Notes: generated by a model from the letters alone, not told the origin. DNA of 64,000 bases from a bacterium (GCA_016934595.1 JAFGSM010000080.1:1000-64999), one strand, 5' to 3'; positions 3,807-42,823 are shown, counted from the first letter of the stretch. A program made the numbers and translations.

Positions 3807-5870
3807 ATGATTTATATCCAGAACATCAAAAAACATTTCGGGCACAAAACCATATTCGATAGCGCTTCAGCCCATATACCCCCTAAGACTAGAGTTGGCC
3901 TGGTGGGACCCAATGGCTCTGGGAAAACTACGCTCCTTCGGATCTTAACCGGTGAAGAGGAACTGGATGGCGGCGGTATCTTTATAAATAAAGGAGCCCG
4001 GGCCGGTTATCTCAAACAGGAGGTATGGGATAATCCAGACCGCGGCATTTTGGCAGAGACGCTGTCGGGTTTTCCTGATCTTCAAAAGATTGAACAGGGC
4101 CTGATAGAACTGGAACGGCAGATGGAGGGCAAATTTCTGCCTGACACCCTTGAAAAATATGGAGAGTTGCGTCATCTTTTTGAGATACAAGGCGGTTACG
4201 ATATAGAACATCAGGCCAAGTCATTGCTTTGCGGCATGGGTTTCCGTCCGGAGCAATTCGCTCAGCCCCTGCACCAGTTCTCAGGCGGTTGGATGATGCG
4301 CGTCTGTCTCGCTAAATTACTATTGGCCAAGCCCGATGTGCTTTTGCTGGATGAGCCAACGAACCATCTTGACCTGGAGACTATATTATGGCTTGAAAAT
4401 TTTTTGCTTGAATATCCTGGCACCATCGTGTTCACAACACACGACCAGGTATTTATGCAGAATGTGGCAGGGCGTATTCTGGAAATCAGCCGGTGCAAGT
4501 TGTTTACATTTATAGGAAGCTTCGAGGAATATGTGGAGGAAAAGGCTTCCAGGCAGGAACAGATCGAGGCCCAGTATAAAAACCAGCAGAAAAAGGTCGA
4601 ACAGCAGGAGCGTTTTATTGAGCGCTTCCGGTACAAGGCCACCAAGGCAAAGCAGGTGCAAAGCCGTATCAAAATGCTTCAGAAAAAGGAACGGGTGGAT
4701 ATGATAGAAGACACCCCGCGTGCGATGAAGATTCGCCTGCCCCAACCACCCCGGTCAGGTCAAAAGGTGGTGCATGTCTCAAATGTTACAAAAAAATACG
4801 GCGAGAAGACGGTCTATGAAGGGCTAAACCTTATCATCGAACGGGGTGAGAAGGCGGTGCTGGTTGGGCCGAACGGTGCAGGCAAATCTACACTCCTCAA
4901 GATTATAGCCGGAGTAATAGACATCCAGGCTGGAACCGTATCTTATGGCCACCAGGTCACAATGGATTACTACGCCCAGCATCAGCTCGAAACCCTGAAT
5001 CCGGATTTCAGCATACTGGAGGAATTGACGGCTGTGACACAGGACTTCACTCTTGAGAAACGCCGAAAACTATTAGGGGCATTCCTGTTCTCAGGCGAAG
5101 ATGTTTTTAAGCGCATCTCCATTTTGTCCGGCGGCGAAAAGGCACGAATCGCCCTGGTTAAAATGCTATGCCGGCCAATGAATTTCCTGGTCATGGATGA
5201 GCCTACCAATCACCTGGATATCCTTTCTCGTCAGGTACTTGAGGATGCGCTGTCAGACTATGATGGAACACTTGTTTTTATCTCCCATGACAGGGCATTT
5301 ATCAATTCCTTCGCAAACCGTGTTATCGAGATCAGGGATGGCAAACTGCACAGCTATCCAGGAAATTACGATGACTATGAATGGAAAAAAGCCCAGGAAA
5401 AACCACAAACACCTCTTGATCAAAAAATAAAAAACCGGCTGTCACCCGAATGCGTGGCCCCGGATATTCACGGCTCAAATTCTAATGAAAAGCCCATGAA
5501 TCTTAGATTCACAAAGGGGAATGAAAATATACAGAAGGGATTTTCAGATAAAAAAATCCCGGGCAAAAAAGACGGGCGTCGCGTGCGAGCCGAAAGGATA
5601 CAGGAAAAATCCAGGCGTCTAAAACCGCTTAAGGAGAAACTGGCTATTCTGGAAAAAGATATAGCAGCCCTGGAAGCAGAAAAAGAGGTAATCTCATCGG
5701 CAATATGCGACCCTAATATCATAAGCGATACTTCAGTCTATCCGCAAAAACTCAAAAGACACCGTGTCCTTGAGACAAGACTCCAAATATATTATGACGA
5801 ATGGGCAGAAACTTCCCAGCAGATAGAGGAAACCCTTTCAGAGTTTTCAGAGTTACAACCGGGTGATTAA
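3807..5870 (+). CDS. ABC-F family ATPase (EttA/Uup/YheS-like, two ABC domains) with an extended C-terminal tail
   Basis: Two Walker A motifs ([18 protein letters not shown]), two ABC signature motifs ([19 protein letters not shown]) and no TMDs. The C-terminal roughly 150 aa is a coiled-coil tail that contains an in-frame copy of the dispersed repeat (aa ...[23 protein letters not shown]...). Confidence 0.85.
5496..5560 (+). repeat. One unit of the dispersed structured repeat family, inserted in-frame in the ABC-F tail
   Basis: ATGAATCTTAGATTCACAAAGGGGAATGAAAATATACAGAAGGGATTTTCAGATAAAAAAAT matches the units at 58878, 14803 and 8911. It contains two palindromes: TGAATCTtAGATTCA and GAAAATatacagaagggATTTTC. 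Confidence 0.7.
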
Positions 5871-6662: not shown

Positions 6663-7076
6663 ATGAATCTCGTAGAAATAGGGGAAAGGGAAAAGGTTCA
6701 AAGGAAAAAAACCTTAAACCCGTGCCGGATATTGATCGTGGATGACGATCTTTCAATCCGTTCACTGCTGCAAAACTTGCTTAACATGAAGGGCTATGAT
6801 GTCTGGACAGCCGAAGATGCCCTTGCGGCATACCAGGAGATAGAAAGTATCAACCCTCAGTTAATCATTCTCGATATCAGATTGCCATCTGTGGATGGGA
6901 TTGATTTTTTGCATATACTCCAAAATAAGAATATCCATGCGAAGGTCATATTTATGAGCGCTTATGACGATATGGACATCGACAGGGCCTTTTATATGGG
7001 GGCGTATGATTATATAAAAAAGCCCTTTCACCCTGAAGAGATTATCCATTCTATAGAAAAAGTCCTGAATTATTGA
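6663..7076 (+). CDS. Single-domain response regulator (CheY-like receiver)
   Basis: ILIVDDDLSIRSLL...LIILDIRLPSVDGIDFL...KVIFMSAY...KPF carries the receiver-domain Asp pocket and the phospho-acceptor Asp in ILDIRLP. A strong RBS (aaggagggggga) lies 4 nt upstream of the ATG. Confidence 0.8.
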   Translation: MNLVEIGEREKVQRKKTLNPCRILIVDDDLSIRSLLQNLLNMKGYDVWTAEDALAAYQEIESINPQLIILDIRLPSVDGIDFLHILQNKNIHAKVIFMSAYDDMDIDRAFYMGAYDYIKKPFHPEEIIHSIEKVLNY

Positions 7077-8910: not shown

Positions 8911-8990
8911 TCAATGAAACACTCATGCCTAAATTCGACACAAAGGAGAATGAAAATCCAAAACTATTTTCAGGTGAAAATCAGCGCAGA
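8911..8990 (+). repeat. One unit of the dispersed structured repeat family (intergenic)
   Basis: AATGAAACACTCATGCCTAAATTCGACACAAAGGAGAATGAAAATCCAAAACTATTTTCAGGTGAAAA is nearly identical to one unit (rc) inside the ydbH-like gene at about 14880-14935. It is open-reading-frame-like (MPKFDTKENENPKLFSGENQRRKIEIPK*). Confidence 0.7.
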
Positions 8991-13740: not shown

Positions 13741-15192
13741 CTAATTGACCTTTACTGCCGTACCCCTGTCCTCGAAAATCCTGTTGATCCTTTCCCTCAT
13801 ATCCTTAAAGCTTATTATGTTATCAGGGTTCTGATTGACCATATCGATCCCGCGGAAAAGCCCTTTTCTTATAATAAACTCCTGGCCGTCCTCCTGAATA
13901 AGCCCCCTCAGTGAAAAGATATCGTTTCTTAGCTCGCACCTGAACCCTATTTTTGAGTATGGATAATAGGAAAAAAATCTGTTTAATCCGGAATTAAGAA
14001 CACTCTGAACACCGGAAGACCCTGTGCCGATCATGGAGAGGTTATTAATGGCATCCACGCTGATCTTCTGCCTTACCCCTTTCTGTTTAACCGATTCCAC
14101 CTCCATCAAAAACCTTGCAGGCTGACCATATTCTATCACAAAATCGGTCAACTTTCCTTTGATAACACCGCTGATCTTGCCGATGGGAACCCTTTCTGTC
14201 AGCTTATCAAGCCCTATGCCATCCCAAAAGATAGACCCGCCCAGCCTTCTCCCCTGGCTGAAGGGCATCTCAAGATAAATATCCTTGATATCTAAACCTC
14301 CTCCGAATATTTCAGCATAAAGCGAGCCTGTAAAATCGATCCTGTCATTCTTATATGTCAGATGAGGTATATCTCCATCCAATCGCCCGGATACAGGAAA
14401 ACCTGATCCCTTTGAAATCGTCATCAGATCCAATGCCTTAATGCCTATGGATGCCTGGAAAACAGCGTTTTTGGAGATTATCTCCGCGCCGCTCAGCTCC
14501 CTCAAAAAGACTTCCCCACCGAAGATATTTATATAGACAGGGTCCTTTATCTGGAAACGGTTTTGAGAAAACATGGGATGCAGCTCCAAGTCATCATAAA
14601 ATCCATTTAGCCAGGAAACCTTCTTGATACGGATGACCCCTGAACGTCCATCTGTGAATGGCCCCTGTTCACAGAATGAAGACGCTGCAAGTTCTAAAGG
14701 CAATTCTATAGTCAGTCCAGAGATGGAGATTTCACAGGCAGGTATATCTATTGATGGAAAAGATGCCTTCCATTCGCCGCTAAGCCTCCAACCGCCACTT
14801 TCATCTGAAAATCCCTTCTGGGTATTTTCATTCCCCATTGTGAATCTAAAATTCATGGGCGTTTCACCTGAAAATAGTTTTGGATTTTCATTCTCCTTTG
14901 TGCCGAATTTAGGCATGAGTGTTTCATCTATCATCGCCCTTAGTTTAAAAACAGAGCATCCCGATATATTAATCCCCTGTAAAGCAGGCGGTCCCTGTTC
15001 ATTGCCTTCCGCGATGATAAAACCGAGGAGAGCGGAATGGTTGATGCCAGACGTCTTTGTCTCTAAATCAAGAGACAATCCCTTTTGATCCATTTTTATC
15101 TGAAACCGCAGGCCCCCGATCTCTAAAATATCCAGAACCCCTTTAGACTCTAAACGCTGAAAGTTTGCAAAAAAAAACCGCTTAAATCCCAC
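13741..15192 (-). CDS. YdbH/AsmA-family protein, C-terminal fragment (same gene as 15150..16550 after a +1T correction)
   Basis: Inserting one T in the T9 run (plus-strand A9 at about 15170-15178) joins ...WDLSGFF to FANFQRLESKG... in one frame, giving about 940 aa, comparable to E. coli YdbH. It contains two in-frame repeat units (...MPKFGTKENENPKLFSGETPMNFRFTMGNENTQKGFSDE...). Confidence 0.6.
   Translation of the reverse strand: MGFKRFFFANFQRLESKGVLDILEIGGLRFQIKMDQKGLSLDLETKTSGINHSALLGFIIAEGNEQGPPALQGINISGCSVFKLRAMIDETLMPKFGTKENENPKLFSGETPMNFRFTMGNENTQKGFSDESGGWRLSGEWKASFPSIDIPACEISISGLTIELPLELAASSFCEQGPFTDGRSGVIRIKKVSWLNGFYDDLELHPMFSQNRFQIKDPVYINIFGGEVFLRELSGAEIISKNAVFQASIGIKALDLMTISKGSGFPVSGRLDGDIPHLTYKNDRIDFTGSLYAEIFGGGLDIKDIYLEMPFSQGRRLGGSIFWDGIGLDKLTERVPIGKISGVIKGKLTDFVIEYGQPARFLMEVESVKQKGVRQKISVDAINNLSMIGTGSSGVQSVLNSGLNRFFSYYPYSKIGFRCELRNDIFSLRGLIQEDGQEFIIRKGLFRGIDMVNQNPDNIISFKDMRERINRIFEDRGTAVKVN
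14803..14935 (-). repeat. Two tandem units of the dispersed structured repeat family, in-frame inside the ydbH-like gene
   Basis: The reverse complement reads ...TGAAACACTCATGCCTAAATTCGGCACAAAGGAGAATGAAAATCCAAAACTATTTTCAGGTGAAACGCCCATGAATTTTAGATTCACAATGGGGAATGAAAATACCCAGAAGGGATTTTCAGATGAAA... One unit is nearly identical to the intergenic copy at 8911-8990. Confidence 0.7.
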
Positions 15193-16550
15193 GAAACAGA
15201 GCGCCCGGACAAGTCTTTATATATTGTACCCCAAAGATATTCGCCGTTTTTAATATCTCCATGAGTTCTGAATGTAACCTTGTCATCCGTCGTCTGGGGC
15301 TGGGGATAAACCAGGTCCAGGTTAACATTCAGTTCGATCCCCTCGCCCGCCTTTGTGCCGTCATTGGAACTGAACCCTCCATCCTTTACCTTAATCTCCA
15401 GCCCCCCTTCGAATGTCCATTTCTCCTGCATCCTCATCCCTGTGAGTTGGACGCTGGCATCCCCTCTTCCCTTTACATCCCAAAGATTATTACCTTGGTC
15501 CAAAAACGGACCTATTATTTCAGTCAATCCTGTGATAAAAAAATCCCTTGTAAAAAGCGCAGCCCTGCTGGAACACCCCTCCTTAAAACAAACATCCATA
15601 TGCCCATCAATAACACCCATCTCCGGCGCTTCTGCCTTAAAACCTCTTATGCTCAAGGCCCCCCTTTGCAAATCATATACAATATCCGCATGGATATTAA
15701 TGCCTTTAAGCGCAGGGATATTACCCCCGTCGATCTGAATGCCATTTAACCCCATGTTCACGTCTGGAAGACTTATCTTCTGCGCATCGATAAAGACTCC
15801 GCAATCAAGGCGCATACCCTCTATTGATACGCCTTTTATTGTAATGCCAGAAAGGGATAAGGAAAAGTGCCCGCTGCCTGATAAAACCTGCGAAAGGGGT
15901 GCAAGATTGAGTGTCAACTCTATCTGCCCGGACGTACAGGATAAAAGCGAGGGAGGACATACCTGTAATGCCCCTTTTAAAAAGACCCTGCCCCCTGTGT
16001 CAGCGCCCATATCCCGAACCTCAACAACGGCGTCTTTCAGCTCCAAGATGCCCAGACTGTCGGAAATCTTGATGGAAAAGGCCCCGCCCTTTATATCCAT
16101 CTTCCTTATATACGGCATCTTTCTAATAATATCCTGCAAACGAGAAAAAGCCTGATTGGCATCTAAATGCCCATCACCGGAGGATCTGTCTTTTGAAGAT
16201 TTATTTTTTACAGCATCAGGCATTACATCCAATGCTATATCAGGCTTATAAAATACAAGGTCTACAATCTCGGGCCTGAAGCCGCTTCCGATCCTGCCGT
16301 CAAAGTTAACCGTCTCCACCTCTGCCCTTGCAGAGAGGCCGTCATCCCTCTTTATGGAAAGGCGTTCTATGTTCCCTTCCAATCCGGGTCTTAACGCAAA
16401 ACCTTTCGCATTCAGGGAAATACCGTATTTCAAACGCAGAACATATCCAAGGATATTGACAGGGATGGGGGTAAAGAAAAAAAGGGACACGCAAGCACAA
16501 AAAACTGCGGATAAAAAAATGGCTGTTATTACTATCTTTCTTTTATGCAT
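15150..16550 (-). CDS. YdbH/AsmA-family protein, N-terminal fragment (frameshifted; continues in 13741..15192)
   Basis: An N-terminal signal anchor is followed by long beta-rich repetitive sequence typical of AsmA-like/TamB-like lipid-transfer proteins. Its stop overlaps the next ORF at a T9 homopolymer. Confidence 0.6.
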   Translation of the reverse strand: MHKRKIVITAIFLSAVFCACVSLFFFTPIPVNILGYVLRLKYGISLNAKGFALRPGLEGNIERLSIKRDDGLSARAEVETVNFDGRIGSGFRPEIVDLVFYKPDIALDVMPDAVKNKSSKDRSSGDGHLDANQAFSRLQDIIRKMPYIRKMDIKGGAFSIKISDSLGILELKDAVVEVRDMGADTGGRVFLKGALQVCPPSLLSCTSGQIELTLNLAPLSQVLSGSGHFSLSLSGITIKGVSIEGMRLDCGVFIDAQKISLPDVNMGLNGIQIDGGNIPALKGINIHADIVYDLQRGALSIRGFKAEAPEMGVIDGHMDVCFKEGCSSRAALFTRDFFITGLTEIIGPFLDQGNNLWDVKGRGDASVQLTGMRMQEKWTFEGGLEIKVKDGGFSSNDGTKAGEGIELNVNLDLVYPQPQTTDDKVTFRTHGDIKNGEYLWGTIYKDLSGRSVSWDLSGFFLQTFSV

Positions 16551-16900: not shown

Positions 16901-18511
16901 TTGAATGGATATGGGAAAAAGAGGTATATGTATCATATAAATAATAAGAGGACCCGGTTTTTCTGCCCTCTGGTTTTATATATCGCAGCCTGCCTTTTTG
17001 CGGGCTTTATATTCGGAGAGATAATGGGCGGGGTTTTCGTGGCAGAAAGCAACAGGCAGATACTTTCGGAACAGGAATGGCTGGAGTATAAGGGTTATTT
17101 AGCTGTGCCCGGTACAATTCTGCGTCCGGAGATAAAATCATGGAAGACATACCTCGCAGGAGGGCTGTTTTTTGCCCTCTCCATAGGGTTATGCTATGCC
17201 TTTTCCTGGGGGCTTTTCATCTGGCTTCTCAGCCTCTGGCCCAAGATATTGGCATATACTTCTGCAGGCATCCTCGGCACGATTCTGGCCCTTTTTGTAT
17301 CCACGCCTGGATATAGACAGGTATGGGCCTTTGGCCTTTTTCTCTTCACGCTCCCCCTCATCCTTTTAGCCATCCTTCCCATATTCAGTCCCGGCAAAGA
17401 CAGAAAAGCCGTTTTTTTCAGCGCTATCCCATTTGTCGCCGGGTTTCTGGCCGCCATGCTCGCCGTTTATATCTTTATAACCCCGTCCTTATCAAGCGAC
17501 GATTTTACAAGGATAAGAGATGGGCTGCTTGAAAGGACAAGCATGGGCAGAGCTGTAACCAGGTTTTACTATCAGTATACCCTCTATCCTGCGAGGGTTA
17601 TACAGTCTTACAGCCAGAGGCTTCAGGGATTGCTTAAGATAGAAGACCCGGGATTTACAGAAACAGAGATCAAACGTCTGAAGGATGCACTTGCATGGAG
17701 AGATATTTTTATCGGGGAGGATGCACCTGCAGCCACCATTTTAAAAAAAGACTCTAAGACCGGCAAACTGCTTTTCCTGGGTGATTCTCCACGGTTTCGA
17801 ATCGAGGCAGATATTGAGAGTTTCCTGTCAGATCCCCGCCCTTTATTAAAAGAATACTCTGGCAAGGCAGACCATGCCGTTTTTCTGAGAGAATCCGTAA
17901 AATGGAGCCTGTTCTTTGTATTGCCGGCGCTTCTGATCTTCCTGGTCTTCGGCCTTCTGAACATCCTGTTCAGTTTATTGTCGGGTCTGTTCTTTTCTGG
18001 TTTATTAGGTAAAAATATATCCCGGACAGGAGATATCCTTATGACATTCCTTTTGATGCTTTGCCTGATTGCTGGCCTTAGATTTCTTATTGCCCCCGGA
18101 GGCCCTGTTATCAAAACAGAGGATTTATTGGCTGTGATAGAAGGGAAGCGGCCTGGTGACAAGATAACGGCTGCCATCGAGGTATGGGGCAGGTTGAACG
18201 AGACCAGTGCAAAACCGGAAGATTTTACGCAACATTTTATGGGCATGCTGGGGGACTCCGATCCAAATATCCGTAAATGGGGCATCTGTTTTTTTGCGCT
18301 GGCAGGGGACAGGAAGGCATCAAGACCGCTTATCTCACTCTTGAACGATCCTCATATAGTTGTAGCCTATCATGCAGCCCGCGCACTGGGTACGATACAT
18401 GCCAAAGAGGCAAAGGCCCCCCTTTTAAAAGTGTTAAAGGGTGAGTATGGGTGGTATCTAAAAACAACGGCATATATCGCACTGAGAAAGATCGGATGGA
18501 GCCAGTCATAG
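16901..18511 (+). CDS. Polytopic membrane protein with C-terminal HEAT/PBS-lyase-type repeats
   Basis: There are about 8 predicted TM helices. The C-terminal cytoplasmic segment DSDPNIRKWGICFFALAGD...LLNDPHIVVAYHAARALGTIHAKEA...LKTTAYIALRKIG has the HEAT_2 repeat pattern. Confidence 0.45.
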   Translation: MNGYGKKRYMYHINNKRTRFFCPLVLYIAACLFAGFIFGEIMGGVFVAESNRQILSEQEWLEYKGYLAVPGTILRPEIKSWKTYLAGGLFFALSIGLCYAFSWGLFIWLLSLWPKILAYTSAGILGTILALFVSTPGYRQVWAFGLFLFTLPLILLAILPIFSPGKDRKAVFFSAIPFVAGFLAAMLAVYIFITPSLSSDDFTRIRDGLLERTSMGRAVTRFYYQYTLYPARVIQSYSQRLQGLLKIEDPGFTETEIKRLKDALAWRDIFIGEDAPAATILKKDSKTGKLLFLGDSPRFRIEADIESFLSDPRPLLKEYSGKADHAVFLRESVKWSLFFVLPALLIFLVFGLLNILFSLLSGLFFSGLLGKNISRTGDILMTFLLMLCLIAGLRFLIAPGGPVIKTEDLLAVIEGKRPGDKITAAIEVWGRLNETSAKPEDFTQHFMGMLGDSDPNIRKWGICFFALAGDRKASRPLISLLNDPHIVVAYHAARALGTIHAKEAKAPLLKVLKGEYGWYLKTTAYIALRKIGWSQS

Positions 18512-19182
18512 GCATAGGGCCTCAGCCTGAGAGATATGCCTTGCCCGCAGGCAGGGCGTTTATCCTTGTTTTATTGCTCATATCTCTGGAGATAATTGGG
18601 AATCTTGTATACCAAACCGTTCTAAGCGAATCAAGGATAGATCCACTCATTTTTACTGGCATCCTGAGGGCTATTGGGATGGCTGCAATCCTTGGCCTTG
18701 CTTTCAAATGGGGATACAGCCTTTCTCATATAGGGCTTTCCGCAGGCAGGCTTAAAAAGGGGCTCAAACACGGGCTCTTATGGTGTGCAGGATTTGGCCT
18801 GGCTGTAGGTATATCAGGGGCAATATTATTTTTGTCAGGGACAAATCCCCTATCCTTTTTTGGTCGTGCAGGGTCACGTAATACATCCGGAATAATCGCC
18901 TATTTTCTTATAGGGTGCCTGATAGGCCCGATAGTTGAGGATATGGCATTTATCGGGATCATTTACAACAGCCTCAGGGCCAGGTTGAATCTCGTCTTTT
19001 CTGTCCTGATCGTGGCAGGCATATTTGCAGCCGCGCATGGTTTAATCTCCCTTTCTCTGCTCATTCAGTTTACAGGCGCATTATTGTTCACACTATCGTT
19101 TGAGTTTTCAGGAAGCCTGCTTGCACCGCTAATAATACATTGCGCAGGCAACATGGCAATATTTGCCATTCAGTTTTTGTAA
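18496..19182 (+). CDS. CPBP-family intramembrane metalloprotease (CAAX protease/Abi-like)
   Basis: Contains the EExxxR-like motif (VEDMAFIGIIYNSLRAR) and FxxxH (IFAAAHG) plus 6-7 TM helices. The start was chosen at MEPVIG (the listed ORF starts at 18451). It overlaps the upstream gene. Confidence 0.6.
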   Translation: MEPVIGIGPQPERYALPAGRAFILVLLLISLEIIGNLVYQTVLSESRIDPLIFTGILRAIGMAAILGLAFKWGYSLSHIGLSAGRLKKGLKHGLLWCAGFGLAVGISGAILFLSGTNPLSFFGRAGSRNTSGIIAYFLIGCLIGPIVEDMAFIGIIYNSLRARLNLVFSVLIVAGIFAAAHGLISLSLLIQFTGALLFTLSFEFSGSLLAPLIIHCAGNMAIFAIQFL

Positions 19183-19248: not shown

Positions 19249-20577
19249 TCAATCCAGTCCCAGGGTTTTTATCTTTTGATGGAGGAGGCTCCGTTCGATC
19301 TTCAACCTTCTTGCGGCCTGTGATATATTGCCATTGCATGCATTGATGGCCTTTGTAATAAGGCGGCGCTCAAACTCCTTTTTGGCATCCCTGAATGAAG
19401 GCTGTAGATGTTCTTTTCTTAATGATTCCGGTATGTCCATACGGGTGATATGTGAGCCTGGAACCATGATGACAAGACGTTCGACCATGTTCTTCAATTC
19501 TCTCACATTTCCTGGCCAATCGTATGCGAGAAGATCTTCCATCGCCTCTTTGGTTACCGTTCTTAAAGGTTTGCCAAGCTCATCGGAAAAAACCTTCAGG
19601 AAATGACCCACAAGGAGAGGGACATCCTCTTTCCTGTCCCTTAAAGAAGGGATATTAATAGGTATCACATGGAGGCGGTAGTAAAGGTCCTCCCTGAAAT
19701 TTCCCTTTTCCATTTCCTTTTTCAGGTCTTTGTTTGAAGCGGCAATGATCCGGACATCCACCGAGATGGTCTTGTTTCCTCCGATCCTTTGGAAACTCTG
19801 CTCTTCAAGCGCCCTTAAAACCTTGGCCTGGGTCTTCAGGCTCATATCGCCTACCTCGTCCAAAAAAAGGGTGCCTTGATCGGCCAGCTCAAACCTGCCC
19901 TTTCTTTTTACGGTCGCCCCTGTAAAGGAACCTTTCTCATGACCAAACAGCTCGCTTTCGATAAGATCTTCTGGTATGGCTGCGCAATTTAATCCGACAA
20001 AGGGTTTATCAAACCTCCGGCTCCTGTTATGGACCTCTCTTGCGACCAGTTCCTTGCCTGTTCCATTTTCTCCGGTTATAAGTATCCATCCATTGGTCGG
20101 CGCTGCAAGCGCTATCTGACGTTCCAGTTCCTTCACGGCCTTGCTGTCACCCACGATCTGATAACGGTTTGAGTCTTTATGCCTCAGCCTTCTGTTTTCA
20201 GTGCTAAGCCTCTGGGCCTCAAGCGCATGCTGGACTGTAAGCACAGTCTTTTCCAGAGACAAAGGTTTTTCTATAAAGTCATACGCCCCTGCCTTTATGG
20301 TCTTTACAGCAGTCTCTATGTTTCCATGACCTGAAATCATTACTACCGCAATATCAGGCCATTGCTCTCTTATCTTTTGAAGCGCCGCTATCCCGTCCAT
20401 TCCTGGCATCCAAATATCAAGCATAATAAGGTCGGGAGTGTCCTTTTCTATCATTTCCAATGCTTGACTGCCGTCTTCCGCAACACTGACCTCGTGTCCC
20501 TCGTCCTTGAGGATCCCTGCAAGGGCAGAGCGTATCCTTTTCTCGTCATCCACTATAAGTATATGTCCCTTTGTCAT
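19249..20577 (-). CDS. Sigma-54-dependent Fis-family response regulator (NtrC-like: receiver + AAA+ sigma54-interaction + HTH)
   Basis: The receiver is ILIVDDEKRIR...LIMLDIWMPGMDG. The AAA+ domain has GENGTGKELVAREVH, the GAFTGA-type loop (GSFTGA) and ESELFGHEKG. The C-terminal Fis HTH is GNISQAARRLKIERSLLHQKIK. Confidence 0.85.
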   Translation of the reverse strand: MTKGHILIVDDEKRIRSALAGILKDEGHEVSVAEDGSQALEMIEKDTPDLIMLDIWMPGMDGIAALQKIREQWPDIAVVMISGHGNIETAVKTIKAGAYDFIEKPLSLEKTVLTVQHALEAQRLSTENRRLRHKDSNRYQIVGDSKAVKELERQIALAAPTNGWILITGENGTGKELVAREVHNRSRRFDKPFVGLNCAAIPEDLIESELFGHEKGSFTGATVKRKGRFELADQGTLFLDEVGDMSLKTQAKVLRALEEQSFQRIGGNKTISVDVRIIAASNKDLKKEMEKGNFREDLYYRLHVIPINIPSLRDRKEDVPLLVGHFLKVFSDELGKPLRTVTKEAMEDLLAYDWPGNVRELKNMVERLVIMVPGSHITRMDIPESLRKEHLQPSFRDAKKEFERRLITKAINACNGNISQAARRLKIERSLLHQKIKTLGLD

Positions 20578-20599
20578 ATTTGCTAATTTAGTTGATTGA

Positions 20600-21937
20600 T
20601 CAACTGTATCTTTTACAAATCCAGTCTGTCAGCCTCAACGCAGAAAGGCACACCCCCTCCACGCCAAGGCATAGGGGAACACAATCTCCTGTTAAAAACA
20701 GGTTGCGATAGCATGTGAATTCAGAAAACGCCTTGTTGTGTAAAACAGAAAGGGTTTGAGGCACACCCTTTATCCGCCCTAACGGACGTCCGGTAAACCT
20801 CTCATAGGTGGCCGGTGTCGCAGATTCACAGAGACTTATGCCCTCATCAATGAAGGGCATCAGTCCCTTCAATCCATGGATTATCTCTTCCTCTATACGT
20901 TTTTTGCATGCAAAATATTCCTTGCCTTTATTCGCATGCTCATAGGGCTCATACTTGAATATTGACATGGCCCTATACCCTTCCGGCGCCCTCCCCATAT
21001 CCTCAGGAGGATTCATGGCTATAAAAAGAGGGGTTGCCGAATCATTTTCGCCTTTTGTAGGGCTTGGTATGTATAAGACCTCATGACACATCCGGGATGG
21101 TATGCACGACTCCTTAACCCCTAAAAATAAGGCAAAAACAGAGTTTGGGGTTGGCGTCTTTCTCATCCTGTGAATCATCCGCCGCATCCTGTGGCCGTCT
21201 GATATAAGCCTTTCATAGATTCCCCATGGGGTGGTATTTGCTATATAGCATCGCCCCTCCATAACCTCTCCGCTTTCAAGCCTGATGCCGACTGCGTCAT
21301 TTTTCTCCGTCAATATCTCTTTCACGCGGCAGCCCAGCCTGACCTCCCCTCTATGTGAACCTATGTATTCAAAAAGGGGGTTAGATATGGATCCACCCCC
21401 TCCCTTTAAACAAAACCCCCCTGTCGAAGGCAATCCCGCAACCTGGGATGCGAAAGGGATAGCAGTTTTTGTAAATTCTGTCTGTCCCCAAAACAATGTC
21501 TGAAGGTCGAATACAGGCAAAGCTGGGCTTTTTTTAAGTGAACGTGAAAGCGCCCTGCCTGAAGATTTATTTATTGATTTGAGCGCCTCAGGAAATTCCC
21601 TTGCCCATTCCTCCATCATGGCATCAGGGTTCCTGTAGAGGCTAATCCTGTGGCCTGGTATACAGACCTGATAGAATGTGTCCTGAAATATCCTTTCCAG
21701 ATCAAGCCCCAGTTCTCTGAATACCGAATCAAGGCCGCCCCACAGGATATTGGGGAAAAATGTCGGGCCGACATCGAATCTGAATCCTGACCTTGAAAAT
21801 GTCCCGCAGCAGCCGCCAATCCTTGAAGATTGCTCCAGCACAATGACCTTCCATCCCCTTTTTGCCAACAAGGCGCCTGTCGTCAAACCGCCGATTCCCG
21901 CGCCTATTATCAAGGCCAGATCATTCATCATATTCAA
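20600..21937 (-). CDS. FAD-dependent oxidoreductase, phytoene-desaturase (CrtI/amine-oxidase) family
   Basis: N-terminal dinucleotide-binding motif LALIIGAGIGGLTTGALLAKRGWKVIVLEQSSRIGG. Length and C-terminal architecture fit the CrtI-like family; substrate unknown. Confidence 0.65.
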   Translation of the reverse strand: MNMMNDLALIIGAGIGGLTTGALLAKRGWKVIVLEQSSRIGGCCGTFSRSGFRFDVGPTFFPNILWGGLDSVFRELGLDLERIFQDTFYQVCIPGHRISLYRNPDAMMEEWAREFPEALKSINKSSGRALSRSLKKSPALPVFDLQTLFWGQTEFTKTAIPFASQVAGLPSTGGFCLKGGGGSISNPLFEYIGSHRGEVRLGCRVKEILTEKNDAVGIRLESGEVMEGRCYIANTTPWGIYERLISDGHRMRRMIHRMRKTPTPNSVFALFLGVKESCIPSRMCHEVLYIPSPTKGENDSATPLFIAMNPPEDMGRAPEGYRAMSIFKYEPYEHANKGKEYFACKKRIEEEIIHGLKGLMPFIDEGISLCESATPATYERFTGRPLGRIKGVPQTLSVLHNKAFSEFTCYRNLFLTGDCVPLCLGVEGVCLSALRLTDWICKRYS

Positions 21938-22626
21938 TTGAAGAGGCCAAGTCTGACCCTTTTTTTCTTAAAGATGGAAACAAGAAACATGCCCGCGAAA
22001 AAACCTCCGATGTGGGCAAACCAGGCGACTCCGCCATGTCCTGCACCGCCTGCAAGGCTGAGGGTGCCGCTCATAAATTGAATAAAGATCCAGAAGCTCA
22101 ACAAAACCAAGGCAGGCAGTTTTACTATCCTTATGAAATAAAAAAACGTTATCAGGGTCAGCACCCTGGCGCGGGGATAAAGCAGCATGTATGCCCCAAG
22201 CACGCCTGATATGGCGCCGCTTGCCCCGATCATGGGCGTCATTGAATTCGGGTTGACAGCCATATGAGCCAGACTGGCAAAGGCTCCGCAAAGTATATAG
22301 AATATCAAGAATCGGAATTTGCCCATGGCGTCCTCAACATTATCTCCAAATATCCAAAGATATAGCATATTCCCGACAAAGTGCAAAATCCCTCCATGCA
22401 TGAACATGGAGGAAAAGATGGTCAGAAATGTGGGAAAAGGCACCAGCGGGGGTATGTCGGCAAAATTGGTTATTTCAAAAGGGATTGCCCCATATGCAGC
22501 GACAAAACCCTCTGCGTGTTTCCCCAGCGATATCTGAAAAAGAAACACCAGGGAATTGATAATCAGTATGCCAACTGTGATAAATGGGAAACTGCTTGAA
22601 GGGATGTCATCCTTTAGCGGGATCAA
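21934..22626 (-). CDS. Rhomboid-family intramembrane serine protease
   Basis: Catalytic GASGAISGV (GxSG) on TM4 and AHIGGFFAG (His) on TM6, with six TM helices. Start and stop overlap the neighbouring genes by 4 nt (ATGA coupling). Confidence 0.8.
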   Translation of the reverse strand: MIPLKDDIPSSSFPFITVGILIINSLVFLFQISLGKHAEGFVAAYGAIPFEITNFADIPPLVPFPTFLTIFSSMFMHGGILHFVGNMLYLWIFGDNVEDAMGKFRFLIFYILCGAFASLAHMAVNPNSMTPMIGASGAISGVLGAYMLLYPRARVLTLITFFYFIRIVKLPALVLLSFWIFIQFMSGTLSLAGGAGHGGVAWFAHIGGFFAGMFLVSIFKKKRVRLGLFN

Positions 22627-23057
22627 TTCTCGGTATCTAACTCCTTATCTAAATATCCCTTGAGTGTATTAAATACCAACTCTGCCTGAGCCAATGCCTC
22701 CTTTGCCTCCTCATCCCCATAGACTTTGGATGGAACCCATAATGGAAGGTCCGTTCGTTGATAAAGGGGGAACCTGGCCCTTGCTCCGTGTTTTTCCAGG
22801 CTTAACATCGCTTGATATATATCTTCCGCATTCGGAATCAGAGGGGTAAAAACCGCCTTAAACAAGGTTGAAGTCTTATGATCCCTTGTATAAATGCCTT
22901 TCGAAGCAAGGCAGGACTTTGCTATTTTTTCGACAGCCTCCTGCGCAAAATGGATGGTCCTGCTATACAGACCATTTACATGAGTCAATCTTGCCGTTTG
23001 GATATCTACGCTGCTTTCCAAAAGGTACGCCTCTGATATGTCTTTAGGATTGTGCAC
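22623..23057 (-). CDS. Small alpha-helical protein, HEPN-domain-like (tentative)
   Basis: The pattern ...FAQEAVEKIAKSCLASKGIYTRDHKTSTLFKAV... plus a C-terminal helix resembles non-catalytic HEPN domains. No partner nucleotidyltransferase is present. Weak assignment. Confidence 0.35.
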   Translation of the reverse strand: MHNPKDISEAYLLESSVDIQTARLTHVNGLYSRTIHFAQEAVEKIAKSCLASKGIYTRDHKTSTLFKAVFTPLIPNAEDIYQAMLSLEKHGARARFPLYQRTDLPLWVPSKVYGDEEAKEALAQAELVFNTLKGYLDKELDTEN

Positions 23058-23149
23058 TGTTATACCCTCCTTTTGTACGTTATTCTATCTTATTTTGTAA
23101 TGTCTCGTCAAACTTCATAACAAACTCTTCAAAAAACTTCAAAAAATTA

Positions 23150-27210: not shown

Positions 27211-28019
27211 GAAACCTTGATCTTTTCCGTGAAAGGGCTTTCTGGAAACTCCCGGCAGAGGTATGCCTGAACGCCCCTCGCCTCGTCTAACATGCCCTCC
27301 ATCATGTATGTCTGGGAAAGCAGATAAAGGGTCTCATCCCTCCACGGGACTTCAGGATAAAGCGACCATATCTTCTGAAGCCTGCCTCTTGCCGCCTTGT
27401 ACGAGCCGGTCTTCAGGTAAAACCTGGCCACATAGAGGTCATGCTCAGAAAGCCTCAAACGGCATTTGGATACACTATCCTTTGCCTCTTCTGTCATCTG
27501 GCTCTGCGGATATTCCTTGAGGAATCTCTCGAATGATTCCAGAGCCTTGATCGTATAAGTCTGATCCCGATCCGGCCCCAATATTTGCTTAAAAAATGTC
27601 TGCCCTATCCTGAACCTAGCCATGTCAGCCTTTGAATGGAGGGGGTGAAGATTAAGGAATCTCTCGTATTCCGCCCTTGCAGAATCAAATTCTTTGAGTT
27701 GAAAATAACAATCGGCCCTGTTCAGTCTGGTCTTGGCCATCAAAGGGCTCTCAGGATACTCCTCTGTCAGCCTGCCAAAGACCTCCTCCGCCTTCCGGAA
27801 TTTGTCCTTGCCCAGATAATCCATGGCCTGATTATATAGCTCCTGATCCGTAAGCACTCTTGCCTTTTTGCTGCAAGAAGGCAAGGCTGGGGACATGATG
27901 ACAAGGAGGCAGATAACCCATAGAGAAAATATGGTACGTCCTTTTTTATTTTCAATAAATATTTTCGTCTGAAAATCGTTTATGATTTTCATCCTCCTTT
28001 GTGCCAATTTTATTGGCAT
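27186..28019 (-). CDS. bamD: Outer-membrane protein assembly factor BamD-like TPR lipoprotein
   Basis: Lipobox ALPSC after a signal peptide, then TPR repeats with BamD-like motifs (YNQAMDYLGKDKFRKAEEVF..., ...YVARFYLKTGSYKAARGRLQ...). The true start is probably an internal Met. Confidence 0.65.
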   Translation of the reverse strand: MPIKLAQRRMKIINDFQTKIFIENKKGRTIFSLWVICLLVIMSPALPSCSKKARVLTDQELYNQAMDYLGKDKFRKAEEVFGRLTEEYPESPLMAKTRLNRADCYFQLKEFDSARAEYERFLNLHPLHSKADMARFRIGQTFFKQILGPDRDQTYTIKALESFERFLKEYPQSQMTEEAKDSVSKCRLRLSEHDLYVARFYLKTGSYKAARGRLQKIWSLYPEVPWRDETLYLLSQTYMMEGMLDEARGVQAYLCREFPESPFTEKIKVSCKDIEPE

Positions 28020-35389: not shown

Positions 35390-35449
35390 GTTAAACCGAC
35401 TTCACCGGTAATCTTTTTCTTTTTTTTAGTTTTTTATAATATTTTTGCC

Positions 35450-35478
35450 TTGACAGGATTTATAACCAATGATAATAT
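35450..35478 (+). promoter_or_regulatory. Candidate sigma-70 promoter (TTGACA-17nt-TAATAT) upstream of the pilin gene cluster
   Basis: Read directly: TTGACAggatttataaccaatgaTAATAT. The orientation is toward the pilin genes, about 410 bp upstream of the first ATG. Confidence 0.3.
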
Positions 35479-35886
35479 CATTTCGAATATCTATAAGTAC
35501 AGAGTCAAAGCGGCCTTGATTTGGGTTGCCGGTAATCAGGCTTTTGCTTGCAAACACCAGGGCCTCTTCAGAAATAGTCATTCTGAGGCGTCCGGGAGGG
35601 GGGTGAGTATATAGCAAGTCGGATTTTTTCTTTTTAACACATACCTTATATAAACATATACAGAGACTACCATTACAAACAGGGTTTATGAAATATGCGC
35701 CAGTTCTTGCTCATCCTTATATGTTTCTTGTCTAACTAACAGTATACAGTATTTAGAAATCCGTCAATAAGATTGATACACAGATCGATCGTTATTATTT
35801 TTTATCCCTATGGATTATTATTTATTTATTTTATTGTCTATTATTATACGAAATTGCCAACAGCTTAAACGGGGGAGGTCAAAGAA

Positions 35887-36369
35887 ATGATTAAGATTCT
35901 TGGTTCTTTAAGAAAAAACGAGACAGGCTTTACCTTGATCGAGGTAATGGTTGTGATAATCATGGTGGGTATCCTTGCGGCAATAGCCGTGCCCATTTAC
36001 ACCAATTATGTATACAGGGCCAGAACCAGTGAAGCTGTCTCAACACTGGGCGCAGTCAAGACTTATGTCCTGGAAAGACGCAATGCAACAGGCCGTTGGC
36101 CTACCGTTGATGAAATTAGAGCCGAATTTAGAGGCTTTAACGAGCTTTATTACTTCAACAACTCCACAATTAGACTCATTGAATCAGGGGATCGTTTGGC
36201 TGTACGTCTTGAGGCATCGGCCAATTTTGACGCGCCAAGCTCTATTACCGAACAATGGGTACAGTTAGATATCGATTTGAATGGGAATGATGCGAATATG
36301 GGATGGAGCGGGGGGATAGTAACCAGCTATGCAAGCCATCTCAAAGGATGCACATCCCCTTTAACATAA
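35887..36369 (+). CDS. Type IV pilin / pseudopilin (prepilin N-terminal methylation domain)
   Basis: ...NETGFTLIEVMVVIIMVGILAAIAVPIYTNYV... has the prepilin peptidase cleavage site (G|F) and the conserved Glu at position +5. Confidence 0.75.
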   Translation: MIKILGSLRKNETGFTLIEVMVVIIMVGILAAIAVPIYTNYVYRARTSEAVSTLGAVKTYVLERRNATGRWPTVDEIRAEFRGFNELYYFNNSTIRLIESGDRLAVRLEASANFDAPSSITEQWVQLDIDLNGNDANMGWSGGIVTSYASHLKGCTSPLT

Positions 36370-36427
36370 GCGAGTATCTGTATTCTTAATCTAAATAATA
36401 TAACAAGATATAAAGCGTGTTAACATA

Positions 36428-36901
36428 TTGAAAATTAGAATATTTTCAGGTTTAAAAGATCAGAAGCCGTCTTATGGTTCTATATTGATCGAGGTCCTGA
36501 TCTCTATTTTATTGCTGAGTTTTTTTATAATCGGATCTGTTTATTCTTATAGTTTTGTGCACCAGAGGATTCGCCGGCAACTGCATCGAAGAGTACTTTT
36601 AAGCGCCGCGCAGGGATGGATAGAGCAGACAAGGTTTCATTTAGTTAATATTGCCAGGGATACTACCTTGGATCCAAACCAGATCATGACCTCTTCGTTT
36701 CAACGAACCCAGGAAGGTTTGCTCAAGGCAAGATTCGATAAAGAATCCCAGGATATGTTAAACCTGGAACCTGATATGGCGACTATTGATATACATTTAA
36801 GCAATTCTGAGAATAATTTTGTAAATATTTTGATAACTGCGGAACTGGACGGATCGCCAGTAATATTATATACGCAGATCAGCCCGGATATACACAGATA
36901 A
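36428..36901 (+). CDS. Minor (pseudo)pilin, PilV-like
   Basis: Atypical prepilin N-terminus ...PSYGSILIEVLISILLLSFFIIG with the Glu at position +5 relative to the putative cleavage site. Confidence 0.5.
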   Translation: MKIRIFSGLKDQKPSYGSILIEVLISILLLSFFIIGSVYSYSFVHQRIRRQLHRRVLLSAAQGWIEQTRFHLVNIARDTTLDPNQIMTSSFQRTQEGLLKARFDKESQDMLNLEPDMATIDIHLSNSENNFVNILITAELDGSPVILYTQISPDIHR

Positions 36902-36927
36902 ATCAAGAACAGGTAATAAAAAGGCCA

Positions 36928-37539
36928 TTGGTATTAAAAGCTATCCGTAAAAAAAATATACATGGATTTACCCTGATAGAGATTTTGGTTGTTGTCGGCA
37001 TCATTGGCATATTGTTCAGCGCCGGCTTTGGATATTTTTTTAGCGGAGTCTGGCAAGAGCATCGAATATCTGAACAAAAACATTACCTGCAAAGGGAAGC
37101 CAGGTTTGCCATGGATTTTATAATCAATGGAACCATGCAGGCAAATAATCAGGGGTATTTTCGTTTTGGAGGTATCATCGGTTCCCACTTTGTTGAAATC
37201 AGCAATGACCCGAACAGCCAAGGGGGTAATGTGATAACGCTGAAGGACAAAGATAATAATCTGACCGGCCGCATCATGGGTTTCCCCGCGGAAAATCCTG
37301 TGTCTTTGATATTTGATGTAGATCAGGTATCGGGCAATGGCAATGAATTTGTTATAATCCCTCATCAGGTGCAGGATGAACCAGGCGCATTTGGTGTGAC
37401 TGTGAATTTTAGCCAGGACCCAAACAATCCTTCCCTGATCGGCATTGGCATCCAGCTTGACCGGCAAACACCGCAGGGCAGAGATTTAACTGTCCGGTTG
37501 TATTCATCTGTTGCATTAAGGAATGTAGGGGGCATTTGA
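36928..37539 (+). CDS. Minor (pseudo)pilin, PilW-like
   Basis: ...NIHGFTLIEILVVVGIIGILFSAGFGYF... prepilin-type N-terminal domain. Confidence 0.6.
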   Translation: MVLKAIRKKNIHGFTLIEILVVVGIIGILFSAGFGYFFSGVWQEHRISEQKHYLQREARFAMDFIINGTMQANNQGYFRFGGIIGSHFVEISNDPNSQGGNVITLKDKDNNLTGRIMGFPAENPVSLIFDVDQVSGNGNEFVIIPHQVQDEPGAFGVTVNFSQDPNNPSLIGIGIQLDRQTPQGRDLTVRLYSSVALRNVGGI

Positions 37540-37583
37540 ATACCCTTTGAAATGTTTATTTAGTTAGATATCTAATAAAAACC

Positions 37584-39861: not shown

Positions 39862-39884
39862 AAACTTACGGGTATTAATCAAAA

Positions 39885-41842: not shown

Positions 41843-41856
41843 GGAATTAATAAAAT

Positions 41857-42822: not shown

Positions 42823-42823
42823 T

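Follow-up and report, generated by a model that had tools for sequence, protein, structure and literature searches.

An MNT-less HEPN gene beside rhomboid protease, CrtD-like flavoenzyme and NtrC-type regulator genes in the chromosomal core of an uncultured bacterium

Introduction

HEPN proteins of the PF05168 family are classically paired with MNT antitoxins, and we know of no MNT-less HEPN-T protein for which a biochemical role has been established. HEPN-T proteins of MNT-HEPN pairs carry an Ex3K motif and a conserved histidine N-terminal to an R-(Y/F)-P loop, and loss or replacement of the canonical Rx4-6H endoRNase motif is typical of this clade (PMC3710099). Non-catalytic HEPN regulators of the MtlR type, which are small, stand-alone proteins without the canonical RNase motif, are encoded in metabolic operons and not in conflict systems (PMC3710099).

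The genes that accompany the HEPN gene studied here resemble components of other described systems. Rhombosortase and GlpG have a six-TM core with a Ser/His dyad and an HxxxN motif; NtrC, NtrX and PilR combine a receiver (REC) domain, a sigma-54 AAA+ domain and HTH_8, with a phospho-acceptor aspartate and a GAFTGA-type loop; CrtD and CrtISO share an N-terminal GxGxxG FAD fold; and Rce1-like CPBP domains with a fixed membrane partner are found in ABC_perm_CPBP fusions and MroQ. In modules of regulated intramembrane proteolysis (RseP/sigma-E- or rhombosortase-like), the protease is co-conserved with a substrate, an anti-sigma factor or a regulator. Here, we describe a locus that brings such components together in a 64-kb stretch of DNA (hereafter the window) from an uncultured bacterium, and compare it with 89 related loci.

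Results and Discussion

Organization of the locus

The six open reading frames and the tight packing reported in a preliminary description of this DNA match the sequence exactly in their coordinates, and all of its domain calls are correct according to Pfam. The features are as follows.

16901-18511, plus strand: HEAT-repeat membrane protein, 536 aa
18451-19182, plus strand: CPBP protease, 243 aa
19249-20577, minus strand: NtrC-type regulator, 442 aa
20600-21937, minus strand: CrtI-superfamily FAD oxidoreductase, 445 aa
21934-22626, minus strand: rhomboid protease, 230 aa
22623-23057, minus strand: HEPN protein, 144 aa
23066-23071, minus strand: Shine-Dalgarno sequence AGGAGG, 8 nt 5' of the HEPN GTG start, read from the sequence
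23082-23111, minus strand: sigma-70-type promoter of the HEPN operon, TTGACG-18-TAGAAT, matching at 10/12 positions

On the minus strand the order is HEPN, rhomboid, CrtD-like FAD enzyme, NtrC-type regulator, and neighbouring genes lie between -4 and 22 nt apart, the 22 nt being the spacing previously given between the FAD and NtrC genes. Two 4-nt overlaps had been claimed as well. The first stands, with TTGA at 22623-22626 forming the HEPN stop and the rhomboid TTG start, while the second (TTGA at 21934-21937, rhomboid stop and FAD-gene TTG start) depends on the start chosen, as the public gene call uses an ATG 2 codons further 3' (443 aa), leaving a 2-nt gap and no overlap; the two genes are tightly packed under either choice. 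The 4-nt HEPN/rhomboid overlap occurs only in the window genome, with gaps of 17 to ~280 nt at the orthologous loci.

The TTGACG-18-TAGAAT sequence is the top promoter-like site within 16.4-23.3 kb, and its -35 (TTGACGA) and -10 (GATAnnAT) elements are invariant across 7 orthologous upstream regions. The AAGGAGG sequence and GTG start of the HEPN gene are invariant in the orthologues, and both promoter and Shine-Dalgarno sequence are kept in 7 orthologous loci though the upstream gene varies. The four minus-strand genes are real and, judging from the spacing and this one conserved promoter, probably co-transcribed, in agreement with the earlier reading of the block as an operon. A literature search turned up no earlier account of an operon of this kind, as that reading had also held.

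The HEPN protein

The 144-aa protein matches PF05168 over profile positions 3-115 of 117 (E = 2.7e-13, 50.6 bits versus a cut-off of 22), and a search of PDB sequences with the family profile matched 1wol, 1o3u and 1ufb. Its AF2 model (pLDDT 86.5, pTM 0.81) retrieved only HEPN structures as top Foldseek matches in the PDB, namely, 1wol, 1ufb, 2hsb, 1o3u and sacsin 3o10 (TM 0.64-0.81). The MNT-HEPN proteins among these (ST0689, 1wol; TT1696, 1ufb; AF0298, 2hsb; TM0613, 1o3u) share its family and fold, with a probability of 1.00 and TM scores of 0.76-0.81 normalised to the target. The HEPN fold that had been proposed, a four/five-helix up-down arrangement, is thus borne out, and on the Pfam match and the predicted structure we assign the protein to the HEPN-T clade as a true HEPN.

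Invariant positions comprise E43-x3-K47, D59-H60 and G91-A-R-x-R-F-P-L-Y...D-L-P-x-W-x-P-S, of which E43, K47, D59, H60, R93 and R95 are unchanged in 18 homologues with identities as low as 48%; the conserved histidine of 1wol is the counterpart of H60 in the alignment. The canonical Rx4-6H motif is absent from the window protein and sporadic (R53...H60) in its homologues, which does not exclude membership in HEPN-T because loss of this motif is typical of the clade (PMC3710099). As in the HEPN-T proteins of MNT-HEPN pairs, the window protein has an Ex3[KR] motif and an alternative conserved histidine N-terminal to the basic residue of the R-(Y/F)-P loop (PMC3710099).

Unlike the members of MNT-HEPN pairs, the window HEPN has no adjacent or fused nucleotidyltransferase, and its neighbours are rhomboid and receiver-domain genes and not MNT or restriction-modification genes. 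The flanks consist of housekeeping genes (ProS, TrpBA, BamD-like, Opp) that are syntenic in relatives, with the order ProS-TrpB-TrpA-BamD-SBP5-HEPN common to the window and locus L003. The HEPN gene is located in the chromosomal core and vertically inherited, with 65-89% identity in relatives and two stable paralogues per genome. These features bear on a possible role of the protein in a toxin-antitoxin or anti-phage system, as its toxin or RNase effector, with the downstream genes as antitoxin or regulator. The classical MNT partnership of the family speaks for a toxin, as do the retained alternative His/Arg site (PMC3710099) and the MNT-HEPN pairs seen at three archaeal out-group loci (L044, L087 and L089), which hold the closest archaeal relatives at 35-37% identity. 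No MNT gene, however, adjoins the HEPN gene in the window or at any bacterial locus of the family, and PADLOC gives no match for the HEPN, rhomboid, HEAT or CPBP genes. Together with the missing Rx4-6H motif, the housekeeping neighbourhood and the vertical inheritance in two copies, this makes a toxin role very improbable.

The MtlR-type regulators offer another parallel, in that the window HEPN is also small, stand-alone, without the canonical RNase motif and encoded within a housekeeping operon, and non-catalytic HEPN proteins in metabolic operons are a precedent for a regulatory role (PMC3710099). It differs from MtlR in belonging to another HEPN family (no MtlR Pfam match) and in having no sugar-utilisation genes nearby; any repressor role here would be hypothetical.

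Conservation of gene order

The full block (HEPN-rhomboid-FAD-NtrC with convergent CPBP/HEAT) is present in the window and at seven further loci (L004-6, L011-13 and L015), representing ~5-6 species-level genomes, so the arrangement is not confined to this genome, a point that had been put forward as a check. A shorter HEPN-rhomboid-NtrC form without FAD, CPBP and HEAT genes is found at L017, L019, L047 and L049-52, and HEPN-rhomboid, in the same order, in one Nitrospirota MAG. HEPN and rhomboid remain adjacent at identities as low as 54%, the genome concerned having 57% GC versus 45% here. Elsewhere, the next gene after HEPN encodes an SH3 protein (L003, L016), PBP1A (L002), an aldehyde dehydrogenase (L031) or a Na/H exchanger (L034).

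The genes also differ in constraint, with identities among subclade genomes of 79-89% for HEPN, 76-85% for NtrC, 67-74% for rhomboid and 45-65% for FAD, CPBP and HEAT, the last three being found at the HEPN locus in one subclade only. Within the cluster, HEPN is oldest and under the strongest constraint. The rhomboid joined early yet is dispensable, having been pseudogenised or deleted in several genomes, and one subclade later gained the FAD gene.

Accompanying enzymes

The rhomboid (PF01694, E = 2e-33, 115.9 bits) has the core architecture of rhombosortase and GlpG. Inspection of the translation against established GlpG residues located HFVGN (HxxxN, TM2), GASGA (GxSG serine) and AHIGGFFAG (TM6 catalytic His and GxxxG). 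It scores far below the NCBIfam cut-offs for rhombosortase (TIGR03902, 32.1 bits versus 84) and for the GlpG models (16-20 bits versus 250-335), and in contrast to rhombosortase/GlyGly-CTERM systems no GlyGly-CTERM substrate gene is adjacent. Unlike dedicated rhomboid systems, it can be dispensed with, as only remnants of it are left in at least four species (L009/L010/L018, L014, L030) in which HEPN and NtrC are intact.

The FAD enzyme carries the Pfam domains Amino_oxidase and NAD_binding_8, with the N-terminal GxGxxG fold and a C-terminal domain alignable full-length to the CrtD and carotenoid isomerase models. All NCBIfam scores are below cut-off (CrtD TIGR02733, 182.5 versus 549.7 bits; crtI_fam TIGR02734, 94.1 versus 238.1; carotenoid isomerase, 149.8 versus 586.9), and on these matches CrtI membership holds only at the superfamily level. 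The gene is fast-evolving (47-66% identity among orthologues). Orthologues of the window enzyme are only 47-54% identical, and beyond its own clade the enzyme is ~30% identical to cyanobacterial CrtD. It is further set apart from bona fide CrtD by an internal deletion of ~46 residues, seen in the alignment with 491-aa orthologues, and by its surroundings, since a Pfam scan of 46 window ORFs detected no carotenoid-pathway gene (phytoene-synthase and cyclase families). No rhomboid gene adjoins the closest FAD homologues from outside the clade.

On the opposite strand, and convergent with the NtrC gene, the CPBP gene (Rce1-like PF02517, E = 3e-12) overlaps the gene of a polytopic membrane protein with C-terminal HEAT_2 repeats at residues 449-529, as previously described. 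The same pair occurs at unrelated loci (L090, L091 and L092), including one MAG of the window's own lineage, and in other lineages the homologues of the HEAT gene, at 23-31% identity, invariably have an overlapping CPBP gene after them. HEAT and CPBP therefore form an independent two-gene module, HEAT first and CPBP second, which happens to lie here and is linked to the HEPN operon in one subclade only. Like the ABC_perm_CPBP fusions and MroQ, it combines an Rce1-like domain with a polytopic membrane partner, here translationally overlapped and conserved across lineages, but the partner differs in having C-terminal HEAT repeats; we found no description of such a pairing.

The NtrC-type regulator and the proteolysis-module reading

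The regulator shows the full Response_reg, Sigma54_activat, AAA_lid_14 and HTH_8 domain series (E 1e-11 to 1e-71) and, by inspection, the phospho-acceptor D54 in the context LIMLDIWMPGMDG, a Walker A motif (GENGTGKE) and a GSFTGA loop. Its best NCBIfam match is NtrX, at 502.2 bits versus a cut-off of 600, and the models of all named equivalogs (NtrX, NtrC, AtoC, ZraR and others) fall below cut-off. In contrast to NtrC, NtrX and PilR, no HisKA/HATPase gene adjoins it at any locus examined, and it is an orphan enhancer-binding response regulator. A sigma-54 promoter upstream of nearby operons, suggested earlier as a check, was not detected: the 64-kb window has 37 matches to the GG-N10-GC consensus versus 30.8 expected by chance, none of them in a correctly oriented intergenic region, and no site is conserved across 11 orthologous loci.

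The preliminary description had suggested a membrane-stress or regulated-proteolysis module. Spelled out, the six genes would form one envelope-stress or regulated-intramembrane-proteolysis module, in which the rhomboid (perhaps also CPBP) would cut membrane substrates and the enhancer-binding protein would relay the signal, with HEPN and the flavoenzyme as accessories. The presence, within 4 kb, of two intramembrane proteases together with a signalling regulator (Pfam) is consistent with this proposal, as are the retention of the six-gene arrangement in ~5-6 species at 45-89% protein identity and the occurrence of the same HEPN family with a rhomboid in the Nitrospirota MAG and with an M50 site-2 protease and a REC-HisKA protein in Methylomirabilota. 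Against it, loss or truncation of the rhomboid beside intact HEPN and NtrC genes has happened at least three times, the CPBP/HEAT pair is autonomous even within the same lineage, FAD genes are restricted to one subclade and lack protease neighbours in the out-group, and the Methylomirabilota M50 gene is parted from HEPN by an AIR-synthase-like gene. Moreover, the cluster contains neither a sigma-54 promoter nor a gene for an anti-sigma factor, a candidate substrate or a kinase, and the co-conservation that marks RseP/sigma-E- and rhombosortase-like modules was not found. As the cluster breaks into layers and the pattern that recurs is HEPN-receiver, we therefore consider a single proteolysis module unlikely.

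HEPN genes beside receiver-domain genes

About half of the 89 loci (~45) show HEPN-REC adjacency, which persists to HEPN identities as low as 46% and takes three layouts: with an NtrC-type regulator here, with a stand-alone REC followed by PBP1A at the paralogous locus, and with REC-HisKA in Methylomirabilota. The three receiver domains are 28-37% identical, belong to different subfamilies and are not mutual closest relatives, and few independent evolutionary events lie behind the link; the class-2 REC may derive from duplication and not from independent recruitment, since it looks NtrC-like. An MNT-less HEPN that repeatedly adjoins receiver-domain genes is the only deeply conserved, and mildly new, part of the locus.

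It could be argued that the genes are functionally unrelated and merely packed and co-transcribed in a compact genome, with all adjacencies, including HEPN-REC, as historical accidents. Apart from HEPN, every component has undergone gain, loss or replacement in at least one relative, the genes downstream of HEPN vary as listed above, and the different receiver subfamilies point the same way. The persistence of HEPN-REC across three architectures, the retention of HEPN-rhomboid at 54% identity despite the difference in GC content, and the conserved promoter and leader position argue against this view, which we regard as rather unlikely.

Our preferred explanation, to which we give about an even chance, is that the operon is composite and lineage-specific, lies in the chromosomal core and was assembled stepwise, and did not evolve as one machine. 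Sigma-70 transcription from the conserved promoter would yield a soluble HEPN-T protein that, without canonical Rx4-6H but with its alternative His/Arg and Ex3K residues, may be an accessory factor, binding RNA or nucleotides or acting as a weak RNase, and partner the downstream receiver-domain protein. The rhomboid, with its catalytic residues intact, would cleave putative single-pass membrane substrates, and a lipophilic compound resembling an isoprenoid or polyene would be the substrate of the flavoenzyme. We would further expect an unlinked kinase to phosphorylate the orphan regulator at D54, and the regulator to switch on sigma-54 promoters at other sites in the genome.

A more far-reaching and distinctly speculative idea is that the MNT-less HEPN subfamily is an unrecognised connector of two-component signalling, acting directly on or with receiver domains and possibly linking intramembrane proteolysis and a cue from RNA or nucleotides to the output of the phosphorelay. 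The receivers concerned would be the NtrC-type regulator, REC-HisKA and the stand-alone REC that precedes PBP1A, and the proteases the rhomboid here and M50 in Methylomirabilota; the window operon would then be one instance of a wider arrangement.

HEPN neighbours two unrelated intramembrane protease families, the rhomboid here and in the Nitrospirota MAG and, two genes upstream of HEPN, M50 in Methylomirabilota, which pure accretion would not predict and which sits uneasily with stepwise assembly.

Gene layout and family assignment of the cluster

The cluster comprises four minus-strand and two plus-strand open reading frames, whose positions in the preliminary description proved exact when read from the sequence, and whose domain calls were all upheld by Pfam:

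22623-23057, minus strand, HEPN gene (144 aa, GTG start; PF05168, E=2.7e-13), with AGGAGG read from the sequence 8 nt upstream on the same strand
21934-22626, minus strand, rhomboid gene (230 aa, TTG start; Rhomboid, 2e-33)
20600-21937, minus strand, FAD gene (445-aa ORF opening with TTG at 21937; Amino_oxidase and NAD_binding_8)
19249-20577, minus strand, NtrC gene (442 aa; Response_reg, Sigma54_activat, AAA_lid_14 and HTH_8)
16901-18511, plus strand, HEAT gene, overlapping the CPBP gene (HEAT_2)
18451-19182, plus strand, CPBP gene, the HEAT/CPBP pair converging on the NtrC gene (Rce1-like)

The HEPN TGA stop and the rhomboid TTG start share TTGA, and the first of two proposed 4-nt overlaps stands; the second, between the rhomboid and FAD genes, holds only with the TTG start at 21937, the public FAD gene call (ATG two codons later, 443 aa) leaving a 2-nt gap and no overlap. 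The 22-bp spacing proposed between the FAD and NtrC genes is indeed 22 nt. The flanks are ordinary chromosomal core (ProS, TrpB/TrpA, a BamD-like protein, an Opp transporter, MutS, ribosomal protein S1 and a type IV pilus cluster), and the order ProS-TrpBA-BamD-SBP5-HEPN is syntenic between the window and the related locus L003.

With respect to named equivalogs, no cluster protein qualifies, and all belong to well-known families at the family or superfamily level. In NCBIfam the flavoenzyme is closest to CrtD and carotenoid isomerase and the regulator to NtrX, NtrC and AtoC, both under the curated cut-offs, while the rhomboid scores far under the rhombosortase and GlpG cut-offs. The rhomboid carries HxxxN, GxSG and His, and judged by its sequence it looks catalytically competent.

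Fold and motifs of the HEPN protein

HEPN domains are best known from the RNase toxins that act in defence and toxin-antitoxin systems. A profile built from 18 homologues of the 144-aa protein matches the solved HEPN proteins 1wol, 1o3u and 1ufb, and an AlphaFold2 model (pLDDT 86.5, pTM 0.81) has its best PDB matches, at TM 0.64-0.81, in ST0689 (1wol), TT1696 (1ufb), AF0298 (2hsb), TM0613 (1o3u) and the sacsin HEPN domain; together these identify the HEPN fold, for which the preliminary description had proposed a structure prediction. A toxin-antitoxin or defence role, the classical setting of the domain, is very improbable, and we reject it, since PADLOC gave no match for the HEPN, rhomboid, HEAT or CPBP proteins and no minimal nucleotidyltransferase (MNT), the classical partner of PF05168 proteins, was found beside HEPN in the window or in the bacterial loci of the family.

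The window protein lacks the canonical Rx4-6H RNase motif, and the family has as invariant positions E43-x3-K47, D59-H60 and a long loop, G-A-R-x-R-F-P-L-Y-x-R-x-D-L-P-x-W-x-P-S. This is exactly the pattern of the PF05168 "HEPN-T" clade, in which the canonical motif is lost, a conserved His lies elsewhere and an Ex3[KR] motif is present; the stand-alone HEPN-T proteins listed there have MNT or restriction-modification surroundings (Anantharaman et al. 2013, PMC3710099). Homologues are rare; among 5.8 billion proteins they make up 48 clusters, every one of them from unclassified MAGs.

Conservation of the gene neighbourhood

We fetched 89 related loci (L handles), whose neighbouring genes, identified by tblastn and Pfam, fall into five layouts. 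We give about even credence to a composite operon assembled stepwise, in which a vertically inherited, MNT-less HEPN-T gene with its own conserved sigma-70 promoter would have acquired a dispensable rhomboid gene early behind it, the CrtD-like flavoenzyme would be a late, fast-evolving arrival behind the rhomboid, and an orphan NtrC-type regulator, last in the operon, would have its targets elsewhere. That the gene packing is pure accident seems unlikely. The neighbourhood comparison suggested in the preliminary description gave a divided answer, the four-gene block with convergent CPBP/HEAT recurring in several loci and the rhomboid, FAD and CPBP/HEAT genes being missing or reduced in others.

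The first layout, that of the window lineage, is (BamD-like, SBP_bac_5)-HEPN-rhomboid-(FAD)-NtrC. The window, L004-6, L011-13 and L015 have all four genes of the block and the convergent CPBP/HEAT pair, and L014 has the block with the rhomboid reduced to a remnant of ~290 nt. HEPN-rhomboid-NtrC without FAD, CPBP or HEAT occurs in L017, L019, L047 and L049-52, where NtrC is followed by hisI-rpsU-dnaG-rpoD. The rhomboid is cut to its first 94 codons in L009, L010 and L018 and to two fragments of ~30 codons in L030; HEPN and NtrC are intact in these loci, as in L014. In L003 and L016, BamD-SBP5-HEPN runs on into genes for an SH3 protein and an Mrp antiporter.

In the second layout, a paralogue of the HEPN gene (65-70% identity), carried by the same MAGs as the first, stands ahead of genes for a stand-alone receiver domain and for PBP1A, a transglycosylase/transpeptidase; this order is conserved in L020-L029, L053-L058 and L083 (e.g., L022:10001-13170), and PBP1A directly follows the paralogue in L002/L028 (one contig). 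The third, in Methylomirabilota (NC10; 46-50% identity), consists of an M50 protease, an AIR-synthase-like gene, HEPN and a 256-aa REC-HisKA protein, and is conserved in L039-L042, L063 and L069-L082 (e.g., L042:7782-11227), one NC10 sub-branch being without the REC gene. The M50 protease is of the site-2 type, the REC-HisKA protein has no ATPase domain, and the AIR-synthase-like protein falls under every NCBIfam cut-off, its nearest models being HypE, ThiL and SelD. The fourth layout groups three loci with U32 peptidase genes, HEPN and an aldehyde dehydrogenase, one Planctomycetota locus with an ABC-2 gene, HEPN and a Na/H exchanger, and one Nitrospirota MAG in which HEPN (54% identity) precedes a rhomboid 50% identical to that of the window. 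The fifth, an archaeal out-group (35-37% identity), has classical MNT-HEPN pairs.

Separable modules within the cluster

When the window is compared with the other members of its subclade, identity is 79-89% for HEPN, 76-85% for NtrC and 67-74% for the rhomboid, and only 45-65% for FAD, CPBP and HEAT. The window FAD protein is missing ~46 residues in its least conserved segment. We considered and rejected exceptional degeneration of this gene: deletion aside, it is 52-60% identical to its orthologues, which are 48-66% identical among themselves save for one near-identical pair (87%). No rhomboid neighbours were seen beside the nearest out-of-clade FAD homologues (33-34% identity).

The polytopic HEAT membrane protein has homologues in other, distant lineages (23-31% identity), and behind each of them, in unrelated surroundings, lies an overlapping CPBP gene, the two forming a conserved module (L090:4057-6326, L091:6001-8129 and L092:4277-6384); the HEAT+CPBP pair is therefore autonomous and merely juxtaposed to the HEPN operon. 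The DAOURK MAG, of the same broad lineage, has the pair, and its HEPN locus is without FAD, CPBP and HEAT. We found no description of a HEAT-membrane/CPBP pairing.

The preliminary description read the cluster as a possible membrane-stress or regulated-proteolysis module. The best support for an integrated module of this kind is that, in different phyla, genes of the HEPN family have intramembrane proteases of two unrelated families as neighbours, but the rhomboid is repeatedly lost, HEAT/CPBP is autonomous, the FAD gene is confined to a subclade, and a sigma-54 promoter, a substrate gene and a kinase gene are all absent, so that we consider the module unlikely. Reading the eye-catching rhomboid/flavoenzyme/CPBP combination as an evolutionary patchwork guards against mistaking it for a new proteolytic signalling system.

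Association of HEPN with receiver domains

A HEPN gene with a downstream receiver-domain gene is a recurring association, seen in three architectures, which suggests a functional link. The three receiver domains are not each other's closest relatives, and a common origin was rejected (28-37% identity, no higher than to unrelated RECs). The receiver of the paralogue loci has its top scores against the NtrC and AtoC receivers, which limits independent HEPN-REC events to two or three at most. It is a long shot that this HEPN serves two-component signalling as a new accessory or connector protein. The family appears to be an MNT-less, core-genome HEPN-T subfamily tied to receiver-domain genes, all functional inference here being drawn from synteny in uncultured organisms. 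If true, an MNT-less, vertically inherited HEPN family retained beside response regulators in several deep lineages (a sediment lineage, Methylomirabilota and one Nitrospirota MAG) would suggest that the fold serves a housekeeping or signalling function, and would offer a concrete, testable candidate for it. Full-text literature searches turned up no account of HEPN arranged with a rhomboid or with a response regulator, in agreement with the earlier view that the operon type is unrecognised.

Within the window, tblastn with the HEPN proteins of the paralogue and NC10 loci returned the known gene alone. A stand-alone receiver-domain protein (6663-7076, plus strand, 137 aa) has no HEPN upstream and is unrelated to the receivers of the paralogue loci (34-38% identity).

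Promoters

The best sigma-70-like site of the region, TTGACG-18-TAGAAT (23111-23082, minus strand), lies just 5' of the HEPN gene. In aligned upstream regions of seven orthologous loci, the -35 TTGACGA, the -10 GATAnnAT, AAGGAGG and the GTG start are invariant, and these signals persist although the gene 5' of the promoter varies (OppF in the window, a multihaem cytochrome gene elsewhere). In orthologous loci (L004:1010-1119 and others), the conserved -10 box and the HEPN Shine-Dalgarno site have between them a leader of ~90-100 nt whose sequence is poorly conserved; the leader is lost in the window (23058-23082), leaving a very short HEPN 5' UTR.

A sigma-54 promoter (GG-N10-GC), for which the preliminary description had proposed a search upstream of nearby operons, was sought with TGGCAC-N5-TTGCW (<=2 mismatches) in the whole window and with a GG/GC-anchored scan of window 13-29 kb and 11 orthologous loci, with a negative outcome. 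The 37 consensus matches in the window (30.8 expected) included no intergenic, correctly oriented promoter, no GG-N10-GC site was conserved across the 11 loci, and none was seen by eye upstream of the pilin genes. The conserved sigma-70-like site and the negative sigma-54 search indicate that the operon is most likely sigma-70 driven, with the enhancer-binding protein probably acting elsewhere.

Other features of the window

An Rfam scan of the window returned one tRNA only. A type IV pilus/MSH-like cluster (35887-47356, plus strand; pilins, PilM, secretin, T2SSE and T2SSF) is preceded by ~500 nt of non-coding sequence (35390-35886) with a strong TTGACA-17-TAATAT near 35447-35478 and no sigma-54 consensus or Rfam match. 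Two large adjoining ORFs of 466 and 483 aa (13741-16550, minus strand), divergent from the HEAT gene, have no Pfam match, and the second holds two copies of a dispersed repeat of ~65 nt (core TTCACAAAGGRGAATGAAAAT), present in 7 copies against 0.03 expected by chance:

2070-2090, repeat copy
5486-5549, repeat copy
8914-8979, repeat copy
14800-14930, two tandem repeat copies
27969-28005, repeat copy
58882-58948, repeat copy

Several copies lie in-frame within ORFs, e.g., the 483-aa ORF (13741-15192) and an ABC-F gene (3807-5870), and others at gene 5' ends, an arrangement reminiscent of in-frame MITE/RPE-like elements.
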